Positions 2,303 to 39,380 of a DNA stretch of 42,760 bases are shown piece by piece. How positions within the stretch are numbered: the stretch's first letter is position 1; every line of letters starts with the position of its first letter. Source of the DNA: Kiritimatiellia bacterium (GTDB taxonomy: Bacteria; Verrucomicrobiota; Kiritimatiellia; UBA8416); NCBI GenBank assembly GCA_007129405.1, contig SKVN01000072.1:1-42760 (forward strand), in the 5' to 3' direction. Position numbers and translations under genes: made by a program. The notes under the pieces were generated by a model that saw nothing but the letters and a program-made list of their open reading frames with translations, was not told the DNA's origin and did not search any database.

Positions 2303-3580
2303 ATGGAAAAAGCACAATCCGAAGAACTGCGTTATAAGAAGACGCTTCAATATGGTATTTATGTGTTTCCTGTATTGCTGTTGTTGGTGGGACTTTTTAG
2401 TGCCTCTCCCGCCACGGTTTGGAAGGGGTTACGAAGTATCATCGCTTCTCCCAGTGTTCTCTTGCACGACTATTTGTATGTTGGTGGGTTGAGCGCGACG
2501 CTGGTCAATGCGGGGTTGTGTGGCATTATTTGTTGTGTGTTGCTGGCTTTGTTGCGGGTTGAGCTGAACGGCCCTTTCGTGGCTGCGGTTTATACGGTCA
2601 TAGGATTCGCATTTTTCGGTAAGAATATTTTCAATATCTGGCCTATTTTCATCGGAATTGCACTTTTTGCCAAGGTGCAGGGCGTGCCTACGCGTAATTA
2701 TGCTCTCGTGGGCCTGTTTGGTACCACTCTGGCGCCTTTGGTCAGTGCAATTGCGTTTGGTTCGCATCTTTCCGGGGGCATTGCGGTCGCCTTGGGTGCA
2801 GCCTTAGGTGTGCTGGCGGGGTTTGTGCTGCCACCACTAGCATCGCATATGTTGCGCTTTCATGATGGTTACAATATCTACAATACCGGTTTTACAGGGG
2901 GGATTGTCGGATCTTTTCTCACTGCGTGGCTGCGTAGTTTTGATTTCACCGTGGCTCCGACGTCGCGGTTATCAGATCAATATGACGTTTTTCTGAAAGT
3001 GCTGTTGTTAGGCTTCTTTGTGTTTCTCATGCTTGCGGGGTATGTGATCGATCGGCTTGGTGCTCGCGTTATCGCGGAAAAGATGCGCTTGATTCATGCT
3101 TCATCCGGCCGGCTGATTAGCGACTTTATGCGCATTGGGGATGTCCCGTCTTCAATCTTTAACATGGGGTTCATGGGGCTCATCTCTTCTTTCTTTGTGA
3201 TCGCCTTGAATGGACGTTTCAATGGACCCGTCATTGGGGGGATTTTGACGATTGTCGGGTTTGCGGCTTTTGGTAAACACGTGAAAAATTGCGTGCCTGT
3301 CTTGCTTGGAGTGTATCTGGCATCCTTGTTAAAGGTGTGGGATGGTGGTAGCACGCCGGTGATCATTGCGGGTCTTTTCGGTACCACGCTTGCTCCTATC
3401 GCGGGGCAGTTCGGTGCACTCGCTGGCGTGTTGGCGGGATTTTGCCATTTGTCGATCGTGATGAATGTGGGGGTATTGCACGGTGGGGTGAACTTATACA
3501 ACAATGGTTTTGCGGGGGGCTTTGTGGCATCGTTTCTGGTGCCGATTATCAATTCCCTGAAAAAGGAGGATAAGGCATGA
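2303..3580 (+). CDS. DUF1576-like polytopic membrane protein
   Basis: Hydrophobic throughout. Duplicated motifs GFAFFGKN/GFAAFGKH, LFGTTLAP twice, HDGYNIYNTGF/HGGVNLYNNGF. Confidence 0.8.
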   Translation: MEKAQSEELRYKKTLQYGIYVFPVLLLLVGLFSASPATVWKGLRSIIASPSVLLHDYLYVGGLSATLVNAGLCGIICCVLLALLRVELNGPFVAAVYTVIGFAFFGKNIFNIWPIFIGIALFAKVQGVPTRNYALVGLFGTTLAPLVSAIAFGSHLSGGIAVALGAALGVLAGFVLPPLASHMLRFHDGYNIYNTGFTGGIVGSFLTAWLRSFDFTVAPTSRLSDQYDVFLKVLLLGFFVFLMLAGYVIDRLGARVIAEKMRLIHASSGRLISDFMRIGDVPSSIFNMGFMGLISSFFVIALNGRFNGPVIGGILTIVGFAAFGKHVKNCVPVLLGVYLASLLKVWDGGSTPVIIAGLFGTTLAPIAGQFGALAGVLAGFCHLSIVMNVGVLHGGVNLYNNGFAGGFVASFLVPIINSLKKEDKA

Positions 3581-3930
3581 AGCATGAATTAAAAAAGGTT
3601 CTTAAGATTGCTGACGAAGTGATGACGGTTTGTATGTACAAATTTGATCCTGTAAAAGCTTATTTTACCACGGAAAAGTGTGAGACAGGCTATGAGCTGT
3701 TTTTTCGATTTGAATCTGTCACGGTCAGCGACAAAGAGCTGGATGACTTACGCGAAAAATTGTCCGCTGAGCGGAATCCTGAATTAGAGGATTACTATTG
3801 GCAATTAGCGGGCGAAGTGGAGAATAGCAATGAATTGTATCTAGTGGCACTCATGAGTGATTTGTCTGAAGTCTGCTATGATGGGAATGATCTCGCAATT
3901 CATCTTTCTCGTAAAGCAGAACAAGCCTAA
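3577..3930 (+). CDS. Small acidic soluble protein coupled to the DUF1576-like gene
   Basis: ATGA overlap with the upstream stop, AAGGAGG SD, motif RNPELEDYYWQLAGE. Confidence 0.75.
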   Translation: MKHELKKVLKIADEVMTVCMYKFDPVKAYFTTEKCETGYELFFRFESVTVSDKELDDLREKLSAERNPELEDYYWQLAGEVENSNELYLVALMSDLSEVCYDGNDLAIHLSRKAEQA

Positions 3931-5002: not shown

Positions 5003-6265
5003 ATGTCTCCCCCTTTTCTCCAACATCTTGTTGCGCTGCGAACCATTCTGGGTACACACATATTGTTTACTGTGGGTGTCATGTTACTGATGGGGTATTG
5101 TATCGGTATTCTGTCGCGTCGGATTCGATTACCTGAAATTACGGGGTTTATCTTGGCGGGTGTCATGTTGGGGGATAGCTTGCTGGGAGTGGTGCCGCTG
5201 CAGATGACGGGTTCGATGAAAATGATTACCGAAATTGCCTTGGGCCTGATTGCCTTGACCATTGGCAGCGAGTTCTCGCTTGTGAAGCTGCGGCGGATGG
5301 GGAAGACCGTTGTCTGGATCTCGGTCATACAATTGTTGGGCACGTTTGCCGTTGTATTCGGGGCGATGAGGTTGGCTGGGCTTGCGCTTCCGTTTGCGAT
5401 GGTCATTGCTGCCATCGCAACGACGTCGTCTCCAGCCGTGGTTGTTGCCATTGTGCAGTCGTTGCGTGCAAAAGGATTCTTTGTCGATTGTCTATATGGA
5501 GTGGTTGCTCTGCTCGATGCAGGGGCTGTTATTTTGTTTGGGATTTGCTTTTCCCTGGCAGCCGGCATGCTGGGATGGGTTGGGGGAGATGCTGGTCCGG
5601 GGAGTTTGTTCTGGGCGGCCGTAGTGGAAGTTGTGGTGTCGATTGTTGGCGGGCTCATTATGGGAACGATTCTGCATTTGGCGGTATGTCGAAAAAACCA
5701 TCCCAACGAGATTTTGTTGATCGTTTTGGGTGTTACCTGCTTATGCACAGCCATTGCCATCGTGTTTCATCTGTCGCCTCTTCTGATGAACATGGTCGCG
5801 GGAGCTGTCATGATCAATCTGTCGGCCCGCCACCATCGGATTTTTCGTATGTTAGAGCCACTCACTCCTCCGATTTATGCGCTGTTTTTTGTGCTGGCCG
5901 GGAGCGAATTGCAGCTATCCTTGCTCACGCGTCCTACGGTTTTGTTGTTGGGGGGCGTCTATGTTTGTAGCCGGAATCTGGCAAAATGGGCAACGACGTA
6001 TCTGGGGGCACGTCTCGCGCATTGCCCGCCCCCGATTCAGATGAATCTAGGATTGTGCATGTTGCCGCAGGCAGGGGTTGCCCTCGGGTTAGTATTGTTG
6101 ATACAGGCTTCTCCGCAAGCAGCCAACATGACACCGTTGCAAGCGGAAGTGACAGAAACACTGGTCAATGTTGTTTTGTTGTCCGTGTTTATCAATCAGC
6201 TACTGGGTCCGCCTTTGGCGAGGGGGGCGGTAATGCGCGGGAATGACATGGAGGAAGATGAATGA
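5003..6265 (+). CDS. Cation:proton antiporter (CPA2/Kef-like)
   Basis: Many TM segments; LPEITGFILAG, IALTIGSE, ATTSSPA, VALLDA, LPQAGVALGL. AAGGA SD before ATG 5003. Confidence 0.88.
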   Translation: MSPPFLQHLVALRTILGTHILFTVGVMLLMGYCIGILSRRIRLPEITGFILAGVMLGDSLLGVVPLQMTGSMKMITEIALGLIALTIGSEFSLVKLRRMGKTVVWISVIQLLGTFAVVFGAMRLAGLALPFAMVIAAIATTSSPAVVVAIVQSLRAKGFFVDCLYGVVALLDAGAVILFGICFSLAAGMLGWVGGDAGPGSLFWAAVVEVVVSIVGGLIMGTILHLAVCRKNHPNEILLIVLGVTCLCTAIAIVFHLSPLLMNMVAGAVMINLSARHHRIFRMLEPLTPPIYALFFVLAGSELQLSLLTRPTVLLLGGVYVCSRNLAKWATTYLGARLAHCPPPIQMNLGLCMLPQAGVALGLVLLIQASPQAANMTPLQAEVTETLVNVVLLSVFINQLLGPPLARGAVMRGNDMEEDE

Positions 6266-7086
6266 TTTTGCTGGATGCTATATATGCCGACTGTTGTTGT
6301 GTGGATTTTCATGCCCGAAATAAGGATGAGGTGCTGCGTAAGCTTGCTGACTTGATGGCGAGACATCCTGCGGTGGCGGCGATCGGGGCAGATGCGGTCT
6401 ACCGGTTGCTTTCCGATCGGGAGGCCAAGGGAACCACCGGGCTGGGGCGCAGTGTGGCTTTGCCACATGCCCGCGTTCAGGGATTGAAACAGTTTGTTGT
6501 GGGCGTGGCCGTAGCACCGAAGGGCGTAGATTTTGGTGCGATTGATCGCCGCAAGTGCCGGCTCCTATTTGTGGTTCTGGGGCCTGCAGAAGAACCGAGC
6601 GGGCACTTGAAGGCATTGGCTGGCATATCTCGCATCACAGGTTCGGCGCGTCGCCGACGTACCCTGCTGCTGGCAAAAACATCCGAGGCACTATATGAAG
6701 TCATGGTGCAGCATTGCGATCCAACCGCGTCTCCTTCTGCACAGACCCAGAAAATGCGTATTTTGCTCATGATTCTTTACGATGAAGATTTATTATATGA
6801 TATTCTACAGTATTTTCTGGAGCAGGGGGTCGAGGGCGCAACGGTGCTGGAGGGACTGGGGATGGGGCATTACATTTCGAACGTACCTGTTTTTGCTGAA
6901 TACATAGGTTTTATGCAGAAGCGCAAACAGCATAGTCAGACCATCTTTACACTCATTCCGGCAGAACGTGAAGCGGCCTTGCTGGAAGGTCTTGAGTTGA
7001 TTACGGGCGATATGCAGACGCGCCAAGGCGCGATGGTGATAACGGTGGATACGGCATTCCATAAGGGAAGTATGCGCATGCTGTAA
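6262..7086 (+). CDS. PTS EIIA (Ntr/fructose-type) domain fused to a C-terminal PII-like domain
   Basis: REAKGTTGLGRSVALPHAR phospho-His motif, GVDF, HLKALA. The C-terminal GVEGATVLEGLGMG...TIFTLI...GAMVITVD pattern follows PII topology. ATGA overlap with the antiporter gene. Confidence 0.85.
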   Translation: MILLDAIYADCCCVDFHARNKDEVLRKLADLMARHPAVAAIGADAVYRLLSDREAKGTTGLGRSVALPHARVQGLKQFVVGVAVAPKGVDFGAIDRRKCRLLFVVLGPAEEPSGHLKALAGISRITGSARRRRTLLLAKTSEALYEVMVQHCDPTASPSAQTQKMRILLMILYDEDLLYDILQYFLEQGVEGATVLEGLGMGHYISNVPVFAEYIGFMQKRKQHSQTIFTLIPAEREAALLEGLELITGDMQTRQGAMVITVDTAFHKGSMRML

Positions 7087-34738: not shown

Positions 34739-37372
34739 ATGAAGTATAGAAAAAGCATTATACCCTGGTTACAGAAACTCTTTTTTCTTTTTGCTTTTGT
34801 TGCGATATGGAAGACAAATGCAGAGTTAGCCGATATGTCCACCGGTGGTCCCTATGATCCGGAGGAGGAATATCGGTTATCCATAACGGGCATTATTGGA
34901 ACCGTTGCTGATGATCATATATTGGTCACGCGTGTAAAACGAGGCTCTCCCGTAGATAACGTCGTGCAGTCTGGTGATCGAATTATCCGCATACAGGGCG
35001 TTAGCTTATCCCGCGATTTGTCAGCAAGTATCCGCCGGCATATGTTGCGCCTTTGGCGAGAAAACAATGGGCGTCTTGCTCTGACGCTTGTACGGCCCGG
35101 GGAAGATAAGCAGGAAGATCTTGTGTTTGGGGTACAGTTGCATTTGCCGGCACCTTCCGGGACGATTCAGCACTTTGGTCCGATGGGAATCTTTGCGGCA
35201 TTACAGGAAGATCACATCGAGATTACGGAAGTGGTCAAGGGGTCTCCTGCTGACGGGGTATTACGAGCTGGAGACCGTATACATAAAATCGGTGGCAGAC
35301 CTTTGCGAGGGGACTTTTACAAGCTCTTTACCGAAAGCATAGACCAGGCAGAGACGGAAGCAGCAAACGGGGAGCTGTCGCTTGGGGTATTTCGCACACG
35401 AGAGGGCGATGCGGACGAGCAGTCAATCGATCTGACGCTCGTGTTGCCTGTTACCGGAACGCGCACCGAATCGAGTCCGTTTGCATGCCCGAAAACCGAC
35501 GCTTTGATTGATCGAGCAGCGGAATATCTCCTTGCCAGTGGTGATATGGGCCGCTTGAACATAGGCTTGTTAGGGCTGCTTTCAACAGGCGAGGAGCGCT
35601 TCATTGCATATGTCGGAAAACGTTTGCGCGAAGCGGATTTTACCCGGCCGGATCTGGATATTTCCATGTCGGCGTCCATGACGAGTTGGCCATGGTCCTA
35701 TCAGTTGATTACGCTTTGCGAATATTATCTGCTAACGGGGGATACCTATGTGTTGCCAGCCATTCGGACGGCTGCATTGACCTTTGCGCGTGGTCAGGAT
35801 ATTGCGGGCTTGTGGAATCATCGCATGGCGGATCCGGAGGCCAATCGTGGCCAGCTTCACGGCAGGCTTTATGGGTATGGCGCGATCAACCAGACTTCGG
35901 CACCGATCTGGATCGGGCTGATACTGGCGGAGAAATGCGGTATCGATGAGCCTGAGATCCGCCGTGCGATTGAGAAAACCCGCGCGTTATATGCAAACTG
36001 GGCAGGCAAGGGAGGATTGCCGTATGGCAATCACGCCGCCATGGAACACATTCTTACGAATAATGGAACAAGTGGGAGCGTGGCCGTGGGGTTCGCCTTG
36101 CTAGGGGACAAGGAGGCCGCAGCGTTTTATGGGAAGCTTTCCGCGGCATCGCATGGCGATATCTTTACAGGGCACACGGGGCCCTTCTTCAACTATTTAT
36201 GGTCTGGTCTTGGTGCAAATGTGTTAGGACCGGAAGTGTGGGCGGCCTACGAGAATCAGATTCGCTGGTTGCGGACGTTGACGCGCGTCTGGGATGGCAG
36301 TTTTCAATACATGGAGCAGCGTGGTGACATTTTTTCCTATAGCGAATTAAGTTCAACAGGGGCAAACCTCCTGAATATGGCGGCGGGTCGTCGGGCTTTA
36401 CATATTACGGGAAAAGGGATGGATGAAAACCTGTGGCTCCGAGGGGATGCGGTTCAATCTGCGATTTATCGACCAGAGCCAAATGAAGAAATGGCTTTGT
36501 CCGCGCTGTTAGAGCTTGTAGGTCATGTCTTGCCGCCTGTGCGGCTCGAGGTAGCCCGATCCCTCGCAGGGCATGCGGCAGATGTTGAAGAGGGTATTAG
36601 GGATATGCTTTATGAGGGCACGAGGGAACAGCGGATTGGTGCCTTACATACGTTGCGACATATCGAGATAGCGCATGTGGCAGATTCTTTGATGTCTATT
36701 ATTATGGATGATTCGGAAGATCTTTGGATTCGCGAACTCGCCATAGGTACCGTGGCACAGATAGATTCTGCTGATTCACTTGCGGGTGCGCTACTGCGTC
36801 TGATCGTATTGGATAAGCCCTACGATCGTTTTGGTAATTTGGATTTGGCATTAGGGCGTGCGCTAGTCAACATGCTCTCTCCTGATCCGTATGCGCACGA
36901 TTTGGATTGGGATGTATTCTATGCTGCCGTTTTGAAACTATTAGATCATCCACATATGTGGGCGCGGGGTGCAGGAATGAGATTGTTGGAGAACATTCCG
37001 TTAGATGAATTCTATCGGGTCGCAGACCGCGTTTTGCATGTGATTCGGGACGAAGATCTTTCGTACACCGCGTATCATGCAGATGGGCCTCGCCAAGCGG
37101 GGCTTGCTTTGCTGAATCGCTTGCAGATCGAAGAGGTTCTTGCATTGGCGATTCGAACGATTGATGCACCCACGGGGCAGCAAGGTGTTCGCAGGCGCAA
37201 CCGGATAAGCCTGATCCGTTCCTTTGGACGTGAAGCAGAGCTCGTAATTCCTTTGTTGGAGGAAGTGCTAGGCGATGCTGCGGTGCCGCTCGCCGAGTCT
37301 ATCCGGGGATCAGAAATGCGGCGTGAAATGATTCCTCTGGCGGAAGTGACGCAAGGAGGCGACGCGCCATGA
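34739..37372 (+). CDS. Exported protein with two PDZ domains, a DUF6288-like helical domain and HEAT-like repeats
   Basis: Signal-like N-terminus. PDZ motifs VTRVKRGSPVDNVVQSGDRI and ITEVVKGSPADGVLRAGDRI. LCEYYLLTGD, GRLYGYGAINQ, GHTGPFFNYLW. HEAT-like VRLEVARSL and IRELAIGTV. Confidence 0.75.
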   Translation: MKYRKSIIPWLQKLFFLFAFVAIWKTNAELADMSTGGPYDPEEEYRLSITGIIGTVADDHILVTRVKRGSPVDNVVQSGDRIIRIQGVSLSRDLSASIRRHMLRLWRENNGRLALTLVRPGEDKQEDLVFGVQLHLPAPSGTIQHFGPMGIFAALQEDHIEITEVVKGSPADGVLRAGDRIHKIGGRPLRGDFYKLFTESIDQAETEAANGELSLGVFRTREGDADEQSIDLTLVLPVTGTRTESSPFACPKTDALIDRAAEYLLASGDMGRLNIGLLGLLSTGEERFIAYVGKRLREADFTRPDLDISMSASMTSWPWSYQLITLCEYYLLTGDTYVLPAIRTAALTFARGQDIAGLWNHRMADPEANRGQLHGRLYGYGAINQTSAPIWIGLILAEKCGIDEPEIRRAIEKTRALYANWAGKGGLPYGNHAAMEHILTNNGTSGSVAVGFALLGDKEAAAFYGKLSAASHGDIFTGHTGPFFNYLWSGLGANVLGPEVWAAYENQIRWLRTLTRVWDGSFQYMEQRGDIFSYSELSSTGANLLNMAAGRRALHITGKGMDENLWLRGDAVQSAIYRPEPNEEMALSALLELVGHVLPPVRLEVARSLAGHAADVEEGIRDMLYEGTREQRIGALHTLRHIEIAHVADSLMSIIMDDSEDLWIRELAIGTVAQIDSADSLAGALLRLIVLDKPYDRFGNLDLALGRALVNMLSPDPYAHDLDWDVFYAAVLKLLDHPHMWARGAGMRLLENIPLDEFYRVADRVLHVIRDEDLSYTAYHADGPRQAGLALLNRLQIEEVLALAIRTIDAPTGQQGVRRRNRISLIRSFGREAELVIPLLEEVLGDAAVPLAESIRGSEMRREMIPLAEVTQGGDAP

Positions 37373-37397: not shown

Positions 37398-39380
37398 GTG
37401 AGTGCAGTACGGGCTGTGATCGCAGTCTGTGTGGGCTTTTTCTTGTCCATCTTCATCTGGGTCGTTGTGCCGTATAACAATTTCCTGCTGAATAATAGCT
37501 TTGTCAGCGATGGATATCTGCCGGAAATTGTGATGCTCCTACTGGTCCTGCTTGTTCTCCTTGTCAATCCCGCGCTTGCACGCATATCTCCGGCGGCGGC
37601 TTTTTCACAGCAACAGATCATTATCATTGTCAGCATGCTGCTGTTTGCAGCCGTTATTCCGAGTAATGGCCTGATGCGGTTTTTCCCACATAGCCTTGCC
37701 ATGGCAACGCAACAGATCAATGAATCCGATGTTGTGGCGAGCGCGGTTTCTGCGTCTCGCTTGCCGGCAGCATTATTTCCCGATGCGATAGGCCCCGGCT
37801 TGGATACGCCGGTTGTCGATACATTCCTTGATGAATTGCATCAGGATGAAGCCATACCCTGGGGCAGTTGGATCGCGCCGATGTTATCATGGGGGGCACT
37901 GATTGTTGCATTCTGGACTTTAATGATCGGACTAGGCTTTATGGTTTTGCCGCAGTGGATGAACCATGAACGTTTGCCATTTCCTTTGCTGCGCATTTAT
38001 GGGGCACTCGTGGAACCACCGGCGGAGGGACGTGCTGTGGCACCTTTGTTTATATCACGGTTGTTCTGGATCGGGTTTGGGGCCGTGTTCTTGCTCTATA
38101 CAACGAATGGATTGTCGATCCTGACGGGAGGAGGTTTTCCTGCATTTCCCTTGCGGTGGGATATTTCCTATCTCTTTAAAGATGGCGTATGGGTTCACGC
38201 CCCTGGATTTCTGCGAGGTTCGCGTCTCTTTTTCCTGTTTCTAGGGTTAGCATACTTTATGCCGAATCGCTACAGCTTCTCCATTTGGTTTATGGTGCTG
38301 GCGTATGGCTTGTTTATCATGTTCGCACGCACCTATATGCCCTTATTTCAACCGTTGACGATTTATGATCAGACAAGTGGCGCTTTCATTGCCATGGCGG
38401 CATGGGTCGTTTGGTTAGGTCGAAGCACATATTGGCGCTTGTTCTTGTCGGCAGTAGGTATGGGAAGCAGTGAAGAGATTGATCCCGTGGGACGGCTGGC
38501 AGCCAGACTGTTTCTCGGCGGGGCCATGGGGATGTTGGTTTGGTTTATGTGGGCAGGAACCGGTTTTATTGCTGCGGTGGGCTTCGTGTTGCTGGCAATC
38601 GTCATCATGATTATGGTCGCGCGGGTCGTGGCGGAAACCGGAGTCGCATATATTTGGATCATTCCGCTGACGGCAACGCGTATCTTCGGTCTGTTTCCCA
38701 GTCGGTTTTTTCATATTGCCACGGTGTTGATGGAACGTGCCCACTACGTGGTGGCGAATCGCGCTTCCGCAGTCAGTGCGGCCGTCATGGCCATGCTTGC
38801 GTTAGGACTAAATCGCAATGCATCCGTCAAACACAAGGAGGGACTGGCCTGGTTAGGTCTGGGTGTTTTGGTGATCGGTTTTATCGTGTGCGGGGCGGTG
38901 CATCTTCATATGGGATATCATCATGCTACGTCTCTAGATGGAATCAATATGCCGGTTGCGGGAAGAGGGGCACAGATGATGAGTATTGATCCCATGCGGC
39001 GGTTACTAACTGCACGTGAAACCGGCTTTGCTTTCGGACCATTGCGTACGATGGTGGGCGGCGTCGTGTTTGCCATTGCCTTGCTCATGCTGTGTGCGCG
39101 CTTCCCGTCATGGCCGTTGCACCCTGTAGGGCTGCTGTTTGTATATTCCTCCATTGGGCTTCGTATCACGGTAAGCATCTTTTTTGGGTGGCTGATAAAG
39201 TCGCTTATGTTGCGATATGGTGGCAACAGAGCTTATCGGGCATGCATCCCGCTGTTTTTGGGGATCATGTTCGGTGAAATATTTGCGAATGCATTTTGGA
39301 CCCTGGTGCCTGTTGTGCAGATTCTCTTCGGTGCCGATCCGGTGCATTTGCAGCGTCTGATCATATTCCAGTATACGTAA
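37398..39380 (+). CDS. DUF6785/DUF6784-like polytopic membrane protein (putative transporter)
   Basis: Many TM segments; IPWGSW, QWMNHERLPFPL, RVVAETG, WPLHPVG, LRYGG...PLFLGIMFGE. Confidence 0.75.
   Translation: MSAVRAVIAVCVGFFLSIFIWVVVPYNNFLLNNSFVSDGYLPEIVMLLLVLLVLLVNPALARISPAAAFSQQQIIIIVSMLLFAAVIPSNGLMRFFPHSLAMATQQINESDVVASAVSASRLPAALFPDAIGPGLDTPVVDTFLDELHQDEAIPWGSWIAPMLSWGALIVAFWTLMIGLGFMVLPQWMNHERLPFPLLRIYGALVEPPAEGRAVAPLFISRLFWIGFGAVFLLYTTNGLSILTGGGFPAFPLRWDISYLFKDGVWVHAPGFLRGSRLFFLFLGLAYFMPNRYSFSIWFMVLAYGLFIMFARTYMPLFQPLTIYDQTSGAFIAMAAWVVWLGRSTYWRLFLSAVGMGSSEEIDPVGRLAARLFLGGAMGMLVWFMWAGTGFIAAVGFVLLAIVIMIMVARVVAETGVAYIWIIPLTATRIFGLFPSRFFHIATVLMERAHYVVANRASAVSAAVMAMLALGLNRNASVKHKEGLAWLGLGVLVIGFIVCGAVHLHMGYHHATSLDGINMPVAGRGAQMMSIDPMRRLLTARETGFAFGPLRTMVGGVVFAIALLMLCARFPSWPLHPVGLLFVYSSIGLRITVSIFFGWLIKSLMLRYGGNRAYRACIPLFLGIMFGEIFANAFWTLVPVVQILFGADPVHLQRLIIFQYT

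Follow-up and report, generated by a model that had tools for sequence, protein, structure and literature searches.

A two-gene unit, in which a membrane-only cation/proton antiporter is followed by a protein in which a divergent PII-fold domain is attached to an EIIA domain of the phosphotransferase system (PTS), is found in many phyla and is likely, judging from its sequence, to be an undescribed switch tying ion and pH balance to the carbon-energy state of the cell. The unit studied here lies on contig SKVN01000072.1 of a Kiritimatiellia genome (GCA_007129405.1), and the whole stretch of 42,760 nucleotides that was analysed is referred to below as the window (Table 1). Both halves of the proposed switch, PTS control and PII gating, have precedents; their combination is without precedent in the open-licence literature. 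No account of an EIIA–PII fusion, or of its pairing with antiporters, was found in that literature, a scope within which subscription papers largely do not fall, and the terms "fused" and "PII" are absent from a 2026 review of the nitrogen-related PTS. To this extent the view, first reached from the sequence alone, that no characterized example exists still stands. To our knowledge, nearly all cases of PTS control over ion transport come from Escherichia coli, where PtsN acts on targets whose genes lie elsewhere, and PII gating is confined to a few transporters of nitrogen compounds and bicarbonate. With a two-gene unit spread across many phyla, one can ask directly how general the metabolic gating of cation/proton exchange is.

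Table 1. Features of the antiporter and EIIA–PII gene pair, in window coordinates.
Feature	Position	Strand	Evidence
CPA2-type cation/proton antiporter, 420 aa, membrane domain only	5003..6265	+	PF00999, E 5.8e-32; NapA relative; motif tally
Codon of Asp172, invariant predicted ion/proton-binding aspartate, CPA motif position 7	5516..5518	+	Asp in 81/81 antiporter rows having a residue there; PMC6181914
ATGA stop/start overlap	6262..6265	+	Sequence; junctions of relatives
EIIA domain (fructose/mannitol/Ntr type), residues 1–152 of the 274-aa protein	6262..6717	+	PF00359, E 2.5e-22; VIA-align
Codon of His69, predicted phospho-acceptor	6466..6468	+	Alignment with 1a6j; conservation
Divergent PII-fold domain, residues 164–274, long T-loop	6751..7086	+	Model, Foldseek, VIA-align, profile, conservation

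The stop codon of the antiporter gene (TGA, 6263–6265) overlaps the start codon (ATG, 6262–6264) of the 274-residue open reading frame (6262–7086), as had been noted earlier and as the sequence and translations confirm, and a GGAGG site lies directly 5′ of that start codon. Among the 76 relatives in which the junction was scored, the two genes overlap by 1 base in 47 and by 4 bases in 10 (57 of 76 together), and every junction falls between −17 and +18. The ATGA overlap is likely to couple the translation of the two proteins. Promoter and terminator scans returned signal at chance level only.

The pair is widely distributed. A protein search gave at least 28 full-length homologues among the 120 matches listed, and a scan of species genomes, in which 137 of 209 candidate stretches were confirmed, left 80 loci, which are kin found with a single query and not independent events. 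The antiporter gene is directly upstream of the fusion gene, on the same strand, in 79 of these 80 loci (L080 is the exception). The pairing of antiporter and fusion is far beyond chance, and both the pairing and the tight coupling suggested by the sequence-only reading are borne out by these counts and by the narrow range of the junctions. According to record titles the loci represent at least eight phyla, mostly the Spirochaetota, with Kiritimatiellota/Verrucomicrobiota, Planctomycetota, Cloacimonadota, Fibrobacterota, KSB1, WOR-3, and others. The remaining window neighbours (queG and genes for DUF1576, PLD-like, and nitrilase proteins and a 117-residue product) recur in just one of the 80 loci, that of the closest relative (L001). 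Within kin of the source genome the PII-like domain occurs in 5 of 40 genomes (3 of 4 in the genus, none of 11 in the rest of the family, and 2 of 25 in the rest of the order), and the nearest tree branches of the window antiporter include spirochaetes; taken together, this patchy distribution and these branches suggest that the pair may have been transferred horizontally as a cassette. A profile search of cluster representatives recovered 735 proteins at E 0.001, of which the best 150 consist of fusions of about 270 residues, stand-alone proteins of 110–120 residues, and fragments. Over 61 pairs, antiporter distances correlate more strongly with those of the PII domain (r 0.52) than with those of the EIIA domain (r 0.31), with a bootstrap interval of −0.03 to 0.34 for the difference and the order reversed in 5.5% of bootstraps; this gives a weak hint that the antiporter co-varies more with the PII domain. 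Mutual information between the two proteins (75 paired rows, Neff 53) contained only noise at variable positions.

The antiporter has a single Pfam domain, Na_H_Exchanger, at residues 30–405. Since only 15 residues are left after position 405, the protein has no C-terminal RCK/KTN domain, in agreement with what had been proposed for it, and none of the relatives scored extends more than 7 residues beyond the aligned end. Its nearest relative of solved structure is NapA (E 3e-4). The binding-site motif of the window protein is T141-S-S-P144 ... L171-D172 ... K328, with a single aspartate; most relatives have ATAP ... DD ... K. Both D172 and K328 are invariant in the 75 rows of the antiporter family, motif position 5 (Val167 in the window) is Glu in none of them, and positions 6–7 are DD in 52, LD in 9 (the window protein included), and GD in 14. 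The window antiporter also carries Gln in place of Glu at position 399. According to PMC6181914, Glu5 with Arg8 marks CPA1 and Asp6 with Lys8 marks the electrogenic CPA2 clades. With Asp7 and Lys8 present and no Glu5, the antiporter is placed in CPA2, and with Leu171 at position 6 it lacks the Asp6–Lys8 combination of the electrogenic NhaA/NapA/GerN type. Features of Kef/Trk-type carriers are likewise absent, as neither protein contains an RCK/KTN domain and the motif is TSSP, which matches neither the LSST potassium pattern nor the ATDI sodium pattern. Thermus thermophilus NapA (4bwz, 5bz3) shares with the window antiporter the NhaA fold, the lack of Glu5, and the Asp7–Lys8 combination, but has DD, like the majority of the family, where the window protein has Leu at position 6, and differs in the unwound-helix motif, here TSSP. 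In a tree of 53 selected rows with DD outgroups, the LD and GD carriers group together inside the DD carriers (local support 93, unstarred), which would make the window carrier a derived single-aspartate variant. The transporter is predicted on these grounds to be an electroneutral monovalent cation/proton exchanger. The natural DD, LD, and GD variants of the binding site could be useful for studying which features render an antiporter electrogenic.

In the fusion protein, PTS_EIIA_2 is matched at residues 14–148, and this domain superposes on E. coli IIA-Ntr (1a6j) with a VIA-align Z of 23.2 and an rmsd of 1.7 over 149 residues. The motif ALPHAR occupies residues 66–71, and its His69 aligns with the histidine of IPHG in 1a6j. 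His69, Arg53, Glu54, Thr59, and Pro68 are invariant in all 81 close sequences, and His69 is kept in all 78 distant full-length fusions. An EIIA domain with an intact phosphorylatable histidine had been read from the sequence, and the Pfam match, the alignment, and this conservation all support it. The PF00359 fold together with the active-site His and Arg identifies the fructose/mannitol/Ntr class.

The PII fold proposed for residues ~163–274 is accepted here because three methods agree on it. Residues 164–274 folded alone from a 44-row alignment gave an AlphaFold model with a pLDDT of 88.8, in which a ferredoxin-like core, a T-loop after strand 2, and a C-terminal strand, the features of the PII superfamily, are predicted. 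All 31 Foldseek matches listed are PII-superfamily chains (E 1.3e-4 to 9.7e-4, TM 0.55–0.66), with PstA-like chains among the top matches and the ranks tied. The three best VIA-align matches are DUF3240 (Z 11.5, rmsd 2.6, 86 residues aligned), PII (10.6), and CPII (10.4), scores tied with those of further domains of ferredoxin-like fold, EF-G domain V (10.3) among them; SbtB is matched at Z 9.4, tied with many others, and the partner gene here is not SbtA. A profile of 44 family members searched against the PDB has PII, GlnK, and GlnZ chains as its top eight matches (E 1.2e-4 to 2.4e-3), whereas a narrow profile of the PII domain retrieved no PII from the PDB and hhalign of the narrow alignment against one GlnK gave no match. 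At E up to 1, the Pfam P-II model hits 70 of 82 and 33 of 44 family members (best 1.8e-8), the window domain alone being below the cut-off (E 0.16). Of the two domains of the fusion, the C-terminal one shows the stronger conservation (mean distance 0.56, versus 0.89 for EIIA). By its sequence, the EIIA-fused domain represents a PII-like family that has no name yet and whose pocket is non-classical.

Relative to classical PII, Gln39 is replaced by Tyr204 and Lys58 by Ser225. In the B-loop TG is retained (Thr248-Gly249) and GDGK is replaced, with a hydrophobic residue at the position of its lysine, and the C-terminal arginines, present in the RIRTGE tail of the ordinary GlnK that the source genome also encodes, are replaced by Gly269 and Met271. 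The features compared were Gln39, Lys58, the B-loop, GGFL, and loop lengths, as set out in PMC4316997. By these features the domain is not a canonical GlnB/GlnK, which has Gln39, Lys58, and a TGxxGDGKI B-loop, nor is it a PstA/DarA protein, in which GGFL lies in a short T′-loop and the B′-loop is long; here the corresponding motif is GMGHY and the T-loop is long. Like PstA/DarA as described there, the domain combines a PII fold with the lack of Gln39, Lys58, and a Walker-A B-loop, and it has equivalents of Thr28, of Thr43, and of the GA at the end of the B-loop; in PstA the loop lengths are the reverse of the long T-loop and short B-loop found here. Nucleotide sensing by this domain, part of the sequence-only reading, is therefore unsupported so far, the classical ligand residues named above and GGFL being absent. 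Classical-style binding of ATP and 2-oxoglutarate in the PII cleft is not expected, as judged from the residues lost, although the cleft may bind a small ligand.

This leaves room for a dual-input gate, in which the PII domain would bind an adenine nucleotide or c-di-AMP and the ligand and His69 phosphorylation together would decide antiporter binding; we regard this as unlikely. The window subfamily and the stand-alone members keep an adenine side of the pocket, namely Gly192-Ala-Thr194, Gly200, Gly202, and Thr248-Gly249, where Thr194 corresponds to PstA Thr28: in the close family Gly192 and Gly200 are present in 81 of 81 sequences, Thr194 in 72, and Gly202 in 74, and among 27 stand-alone members Gly192, Thr194, and Gly200 are present in 27, 26, and 27. 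In addition, Thr227, and Asn at position 225 in 16 of the 27 stand-alone members, match the N-T-T consensus of PstA given in PMC4316997. The 78 distant fusions go the other way, Gly192 being kept in only 29 and Gly200 in only 26, and a large sister subfamily without the T-loop glycines keeps the same pairing with an antiporter. PstA-like chains near the top of the Foldseek list speak for the gate; against it stand the tied ranks of that list, the replaced residues listed above, and searches in which CdAMP_rec matched none of 82 and none of 44 family members at E up to 1; a search for the PstA family put none of 121 genomes of the phylum of genome G041 over the cut-off. A candidate source of c-di-AMP with a PTS connection is encoded in the source genome, where an EIIA domain, a DacZ_P-like region, and a diadenylate cyclase domain are fused in one protein (C32:2445–3725, L084), a possible link between PTS state and c-di-AMP. 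What the distant fusions do keep, even where the glycines are lost, is Pro209 (75 of 78), Phe211 (76), and Gly269 (78). The T-loop carries a conserved hydrophobic helix, P-[LV]-F-A-x-[FY], and as the invariant feature of the loop this helix looks like a docking element.

We consider the chances slightly better than even that the 274-residue protein is a dedicated cytoplasmic regulatory subunit of the antiporter that is switched by phosphorylation of His69. EI and HPr would pass phosphate from PEP to His69 according to the carbon-energy state. The PII-fold domain would trimerize, with the hydrophobic T-loop helix as its docking element, and would substitute for a cytoplasmic domain missing from the antiporter, a role that CorC/RCK has in YcgO. 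The unphosphorylated fusion would hold the antiporter shut and phosphorylation would release it, a direction borrowed from PtsN–YcgO that is the weakest step. The proposal that the PII domain supplies the docking adaptor comes from a carrier without a CorC-type domain and a PII domain that travels with EIIA everywhere, and all functional steps of this reading we infer from gene context.

In E. coli, EIIA-Ntr regulates K+ transport through TrkA, and it also acts on KdpD. Both had been put forward as precedents; a closer one is PtsN–YcgO. According to PMC11808508, PtsN in its unphosphorylated form binds YcgO, a K+/H+ antiporter, and inhibits it, and a preprint (bioRxiv 10.64898/2026.08.14.744764) describes binding to the CorC domain of YcgO via His73 with a Kd of 188 nM, abolished by H73E. 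The two systems share the EIIA fold and its phospho-histidine, have a cation/proton antiporter of the CPA superfamily as known or proposed target, and involve no sugar permease. YcgO is a CPA1 protein that itself carries RCK and CorC domains, and the gene for PtsN lies at another place, whereas here a CPA2-type carrier without a cytoplasmic domain is co-encoded with an EIIA fused to a PII-fold domain. The docking site of PtsN on YcgO is thus a domain absent from the window antiporter, which counts against the adaptor reading. The second precedent is offered by GlnK–AmtB and SbtB–SbtA, in which, according to PMC10710835, a PII-fold protein encoded beside a transporter has a long T-loop that can serve for docking, the targets are trimeric, and PII reads ATP/ADP/2-oxoglutarate or AMP. 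The present pair differs in its dimeric target class, in the missing ligand residues, and in the attached EIIA. CPA antiporters are dimers. PMC10710835 states that PII control seems restricted to trimeric transporters, in contrast to which a PII–NrtBCD ABC-transporter structure is among the VIA-align matches listed; the mismatch between a CPA dimer and a PII trimer counts against direct gating.

Loci more distant than the 80 bear on the same question. The broad profile matches 42 of 201 sampled genomes of the phylum of G041, weak matches to other PII families included. Forty more distant loci were picked by hand (L179 is apparently the same record as L001), and four of these were excluded as other families, three being DUF1538-linked PII-like proteins and one a GlnK beside Amt. 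Also set aside was an apparent 747-residue fusion (L143), an artefact of the upstream open frame around a stand-alone PII-like gene. The 36 loci retained carry EIIA and PII-like domains: 26 beside a CPA gene (23 with ATAP/ASAP-type carriers and 3 with NapA-like ATSV carriers), 3 in Mrp operons, and 7 with no antiporter in the stretch, of which 2 are near contig ends and 2 come from genomes that carry an additional set linked to an antiporter. Four gene orders occur: CPA then fusion, fusion then CPA, CPA–EIIA–PII, and EIIA–CPA–PII. At the level of sequence, then, the constant unit is EIIA plus the PII-like domain, fused or split. The seven antiporter-free loci count against direct gating and fit a general ion-stress signalling hub, with EIIA–PII acting on some other target (a transcription factor such as the HTH–EIIA protein, the EIIA-fused cyclase, or a kinase) and the antiporter merely co-expressed. 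Among the loci L163–L172 there are 8 whose operon begins with an HTH–EIIA gene, CPA and Mrp are structurally unrelated partners that would be hard to serve with one interface, and the trimer/dimer mismatch points the same way. We nevertheless hold such a hub to be improbable in view of the PtsN–YcgO precedent, the stop–start coupling at most of the scored junctions, and the direct fusion of EIIA to CPA carriers and to an Mrp-type subunit, which places EIIA at the transporter.

In the source genome ptsH, ptsI, and hprK lie together on contig C36, and no EIIC (PF02378) was found in this assembly, which is 76% complete. HPr is present in all 50 carrier genomes examined, drawn from the genomes of the 80 loci, and PF02378, the sole EIIC family searched, exceeds its cut-off in 5 of them. 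These counts make a regulatory EIIA likely and agree with the suggestion that the PTS context is regulatory rather than one of sugar transport; with a single EIIC family searched and HPr common in bacteria (7 of 14 control genomes), they indicate compatibility with the PTS, not dependence on it. That the EIIA domain is an ordinary one left over from a sugar PTS, extended by chance at its C-terminus and located next to a housekeeping antiporter, is very improbable: the fructose-type IIA model TIGR00848 (E 3.6e-19) scores it on par with the PtsN model TIGR01419 (E 2e-19; 69.9 bits against a cut-off of 138.7, for a protein that is fused), both below cut-off, and an EIIC could be missed in an incomplete genome, but the stronger conservation of the C-terminal domain largely refutes such an origin, as do the linkage in 79 of 80 loci and the scarcity of EIIC among carriers.

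Several related arrangements coexist in the source genome. A second antiporter and EIIA–PII pair (C1:16775–18858, L081), also with an ATGA overlap, encodes proteins 40% and 44% identical to those of the window, and its carrier has GD, Arg for Lys at motif position 8, and a long branch. An Mrp/Mbh operon (C143:1147–5902, L082) contains an MbhD–EIIA fusion followed by a stand-alone PII-like gene of the same family, and a CPA–USP–EIIA fusion is found at C55:1252–3342 (L083). A far-reaching interpretation would see in EIIA plus the PII-like domain a portable two-input switch that has undergone fusion repeatedly, has been placed on three classes of antiporter (Mrp and two clades of CPA2), and reads both PTS phosphorylation and an adenine messenger made by the EIIA-fused diadenylate cyclase. 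Such a PTS-centred ion-homeostasis network in sugar-PTS-poor bacteria would drive a single-aspartate antiporter, here a derived form whose transport mode has changed, and, if true, would include the first case of a PII-fold domain gating a dimeric CPA carrier. We think it doubtful. In a tree of the 110-residue PII domain the NapA-linked fusions are separate from the bulk of the fused proteins, but with a support of 56 for the branch between them the tree does not establish repeated fusion.

The genes of the L082 operon encode MnhE, F, and G, MbhD–EIIA, the PII-like protein, MnhB, an MbhE-like protein, MnhC, and a large membrane subunit. Its EIIA has LVHAR instead of the usual PH, and an internal ATG at 2507 could yield a free EIIA. 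CPA antiporters with a C-terminal EIIA also occur at L005:6596–8854, L063:457–2604, and L078:2510–4642, sometimes adjoining EIIA–PII modules. A Cys-rich, zinc-ribbon-like N-terminal part is fused to EIIA at C130:4289–5143 of the source genome. The EIIA domain of the window protein also matches the cytoplasmic domains of human SLC4 proteins (band 3, BTR1, and NDCBE; Z 11–15; model of 6262–7083), a further case of an EIIA-like fold attached to ion exchangers.

Among the distant loci, four (L145, L146, L147, and L151) have EIIA and PII-like genes located 5′ of rpsF–ssb, with no transporter, and form their own branch (support 97). In L163 and L166–L172 the order is an HTH_17–EIIA gene, an EIIA–PII fusion with degenerate glycines, and then an ASAP/DD antiporter; these belong to the sister subfamily. 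More distant PII-like proteins, two of them with tandem domains, lie beside DUF1538 membrane proteins without EIIA in L157, L158, and L176. In the window itself, a DUF6288–PDZ protein (34739–37372) and a DUF6785–DUF6784 fusion (37398–39380) have unassigned functions. At 2303–3930 a two-repeat DUF1576 membrane protein overlaps an acidic 117-residue open reading frame without a Pfam match; both are in the same gene run as queG and the antiporter, an arrangement kept only in the closest relative.
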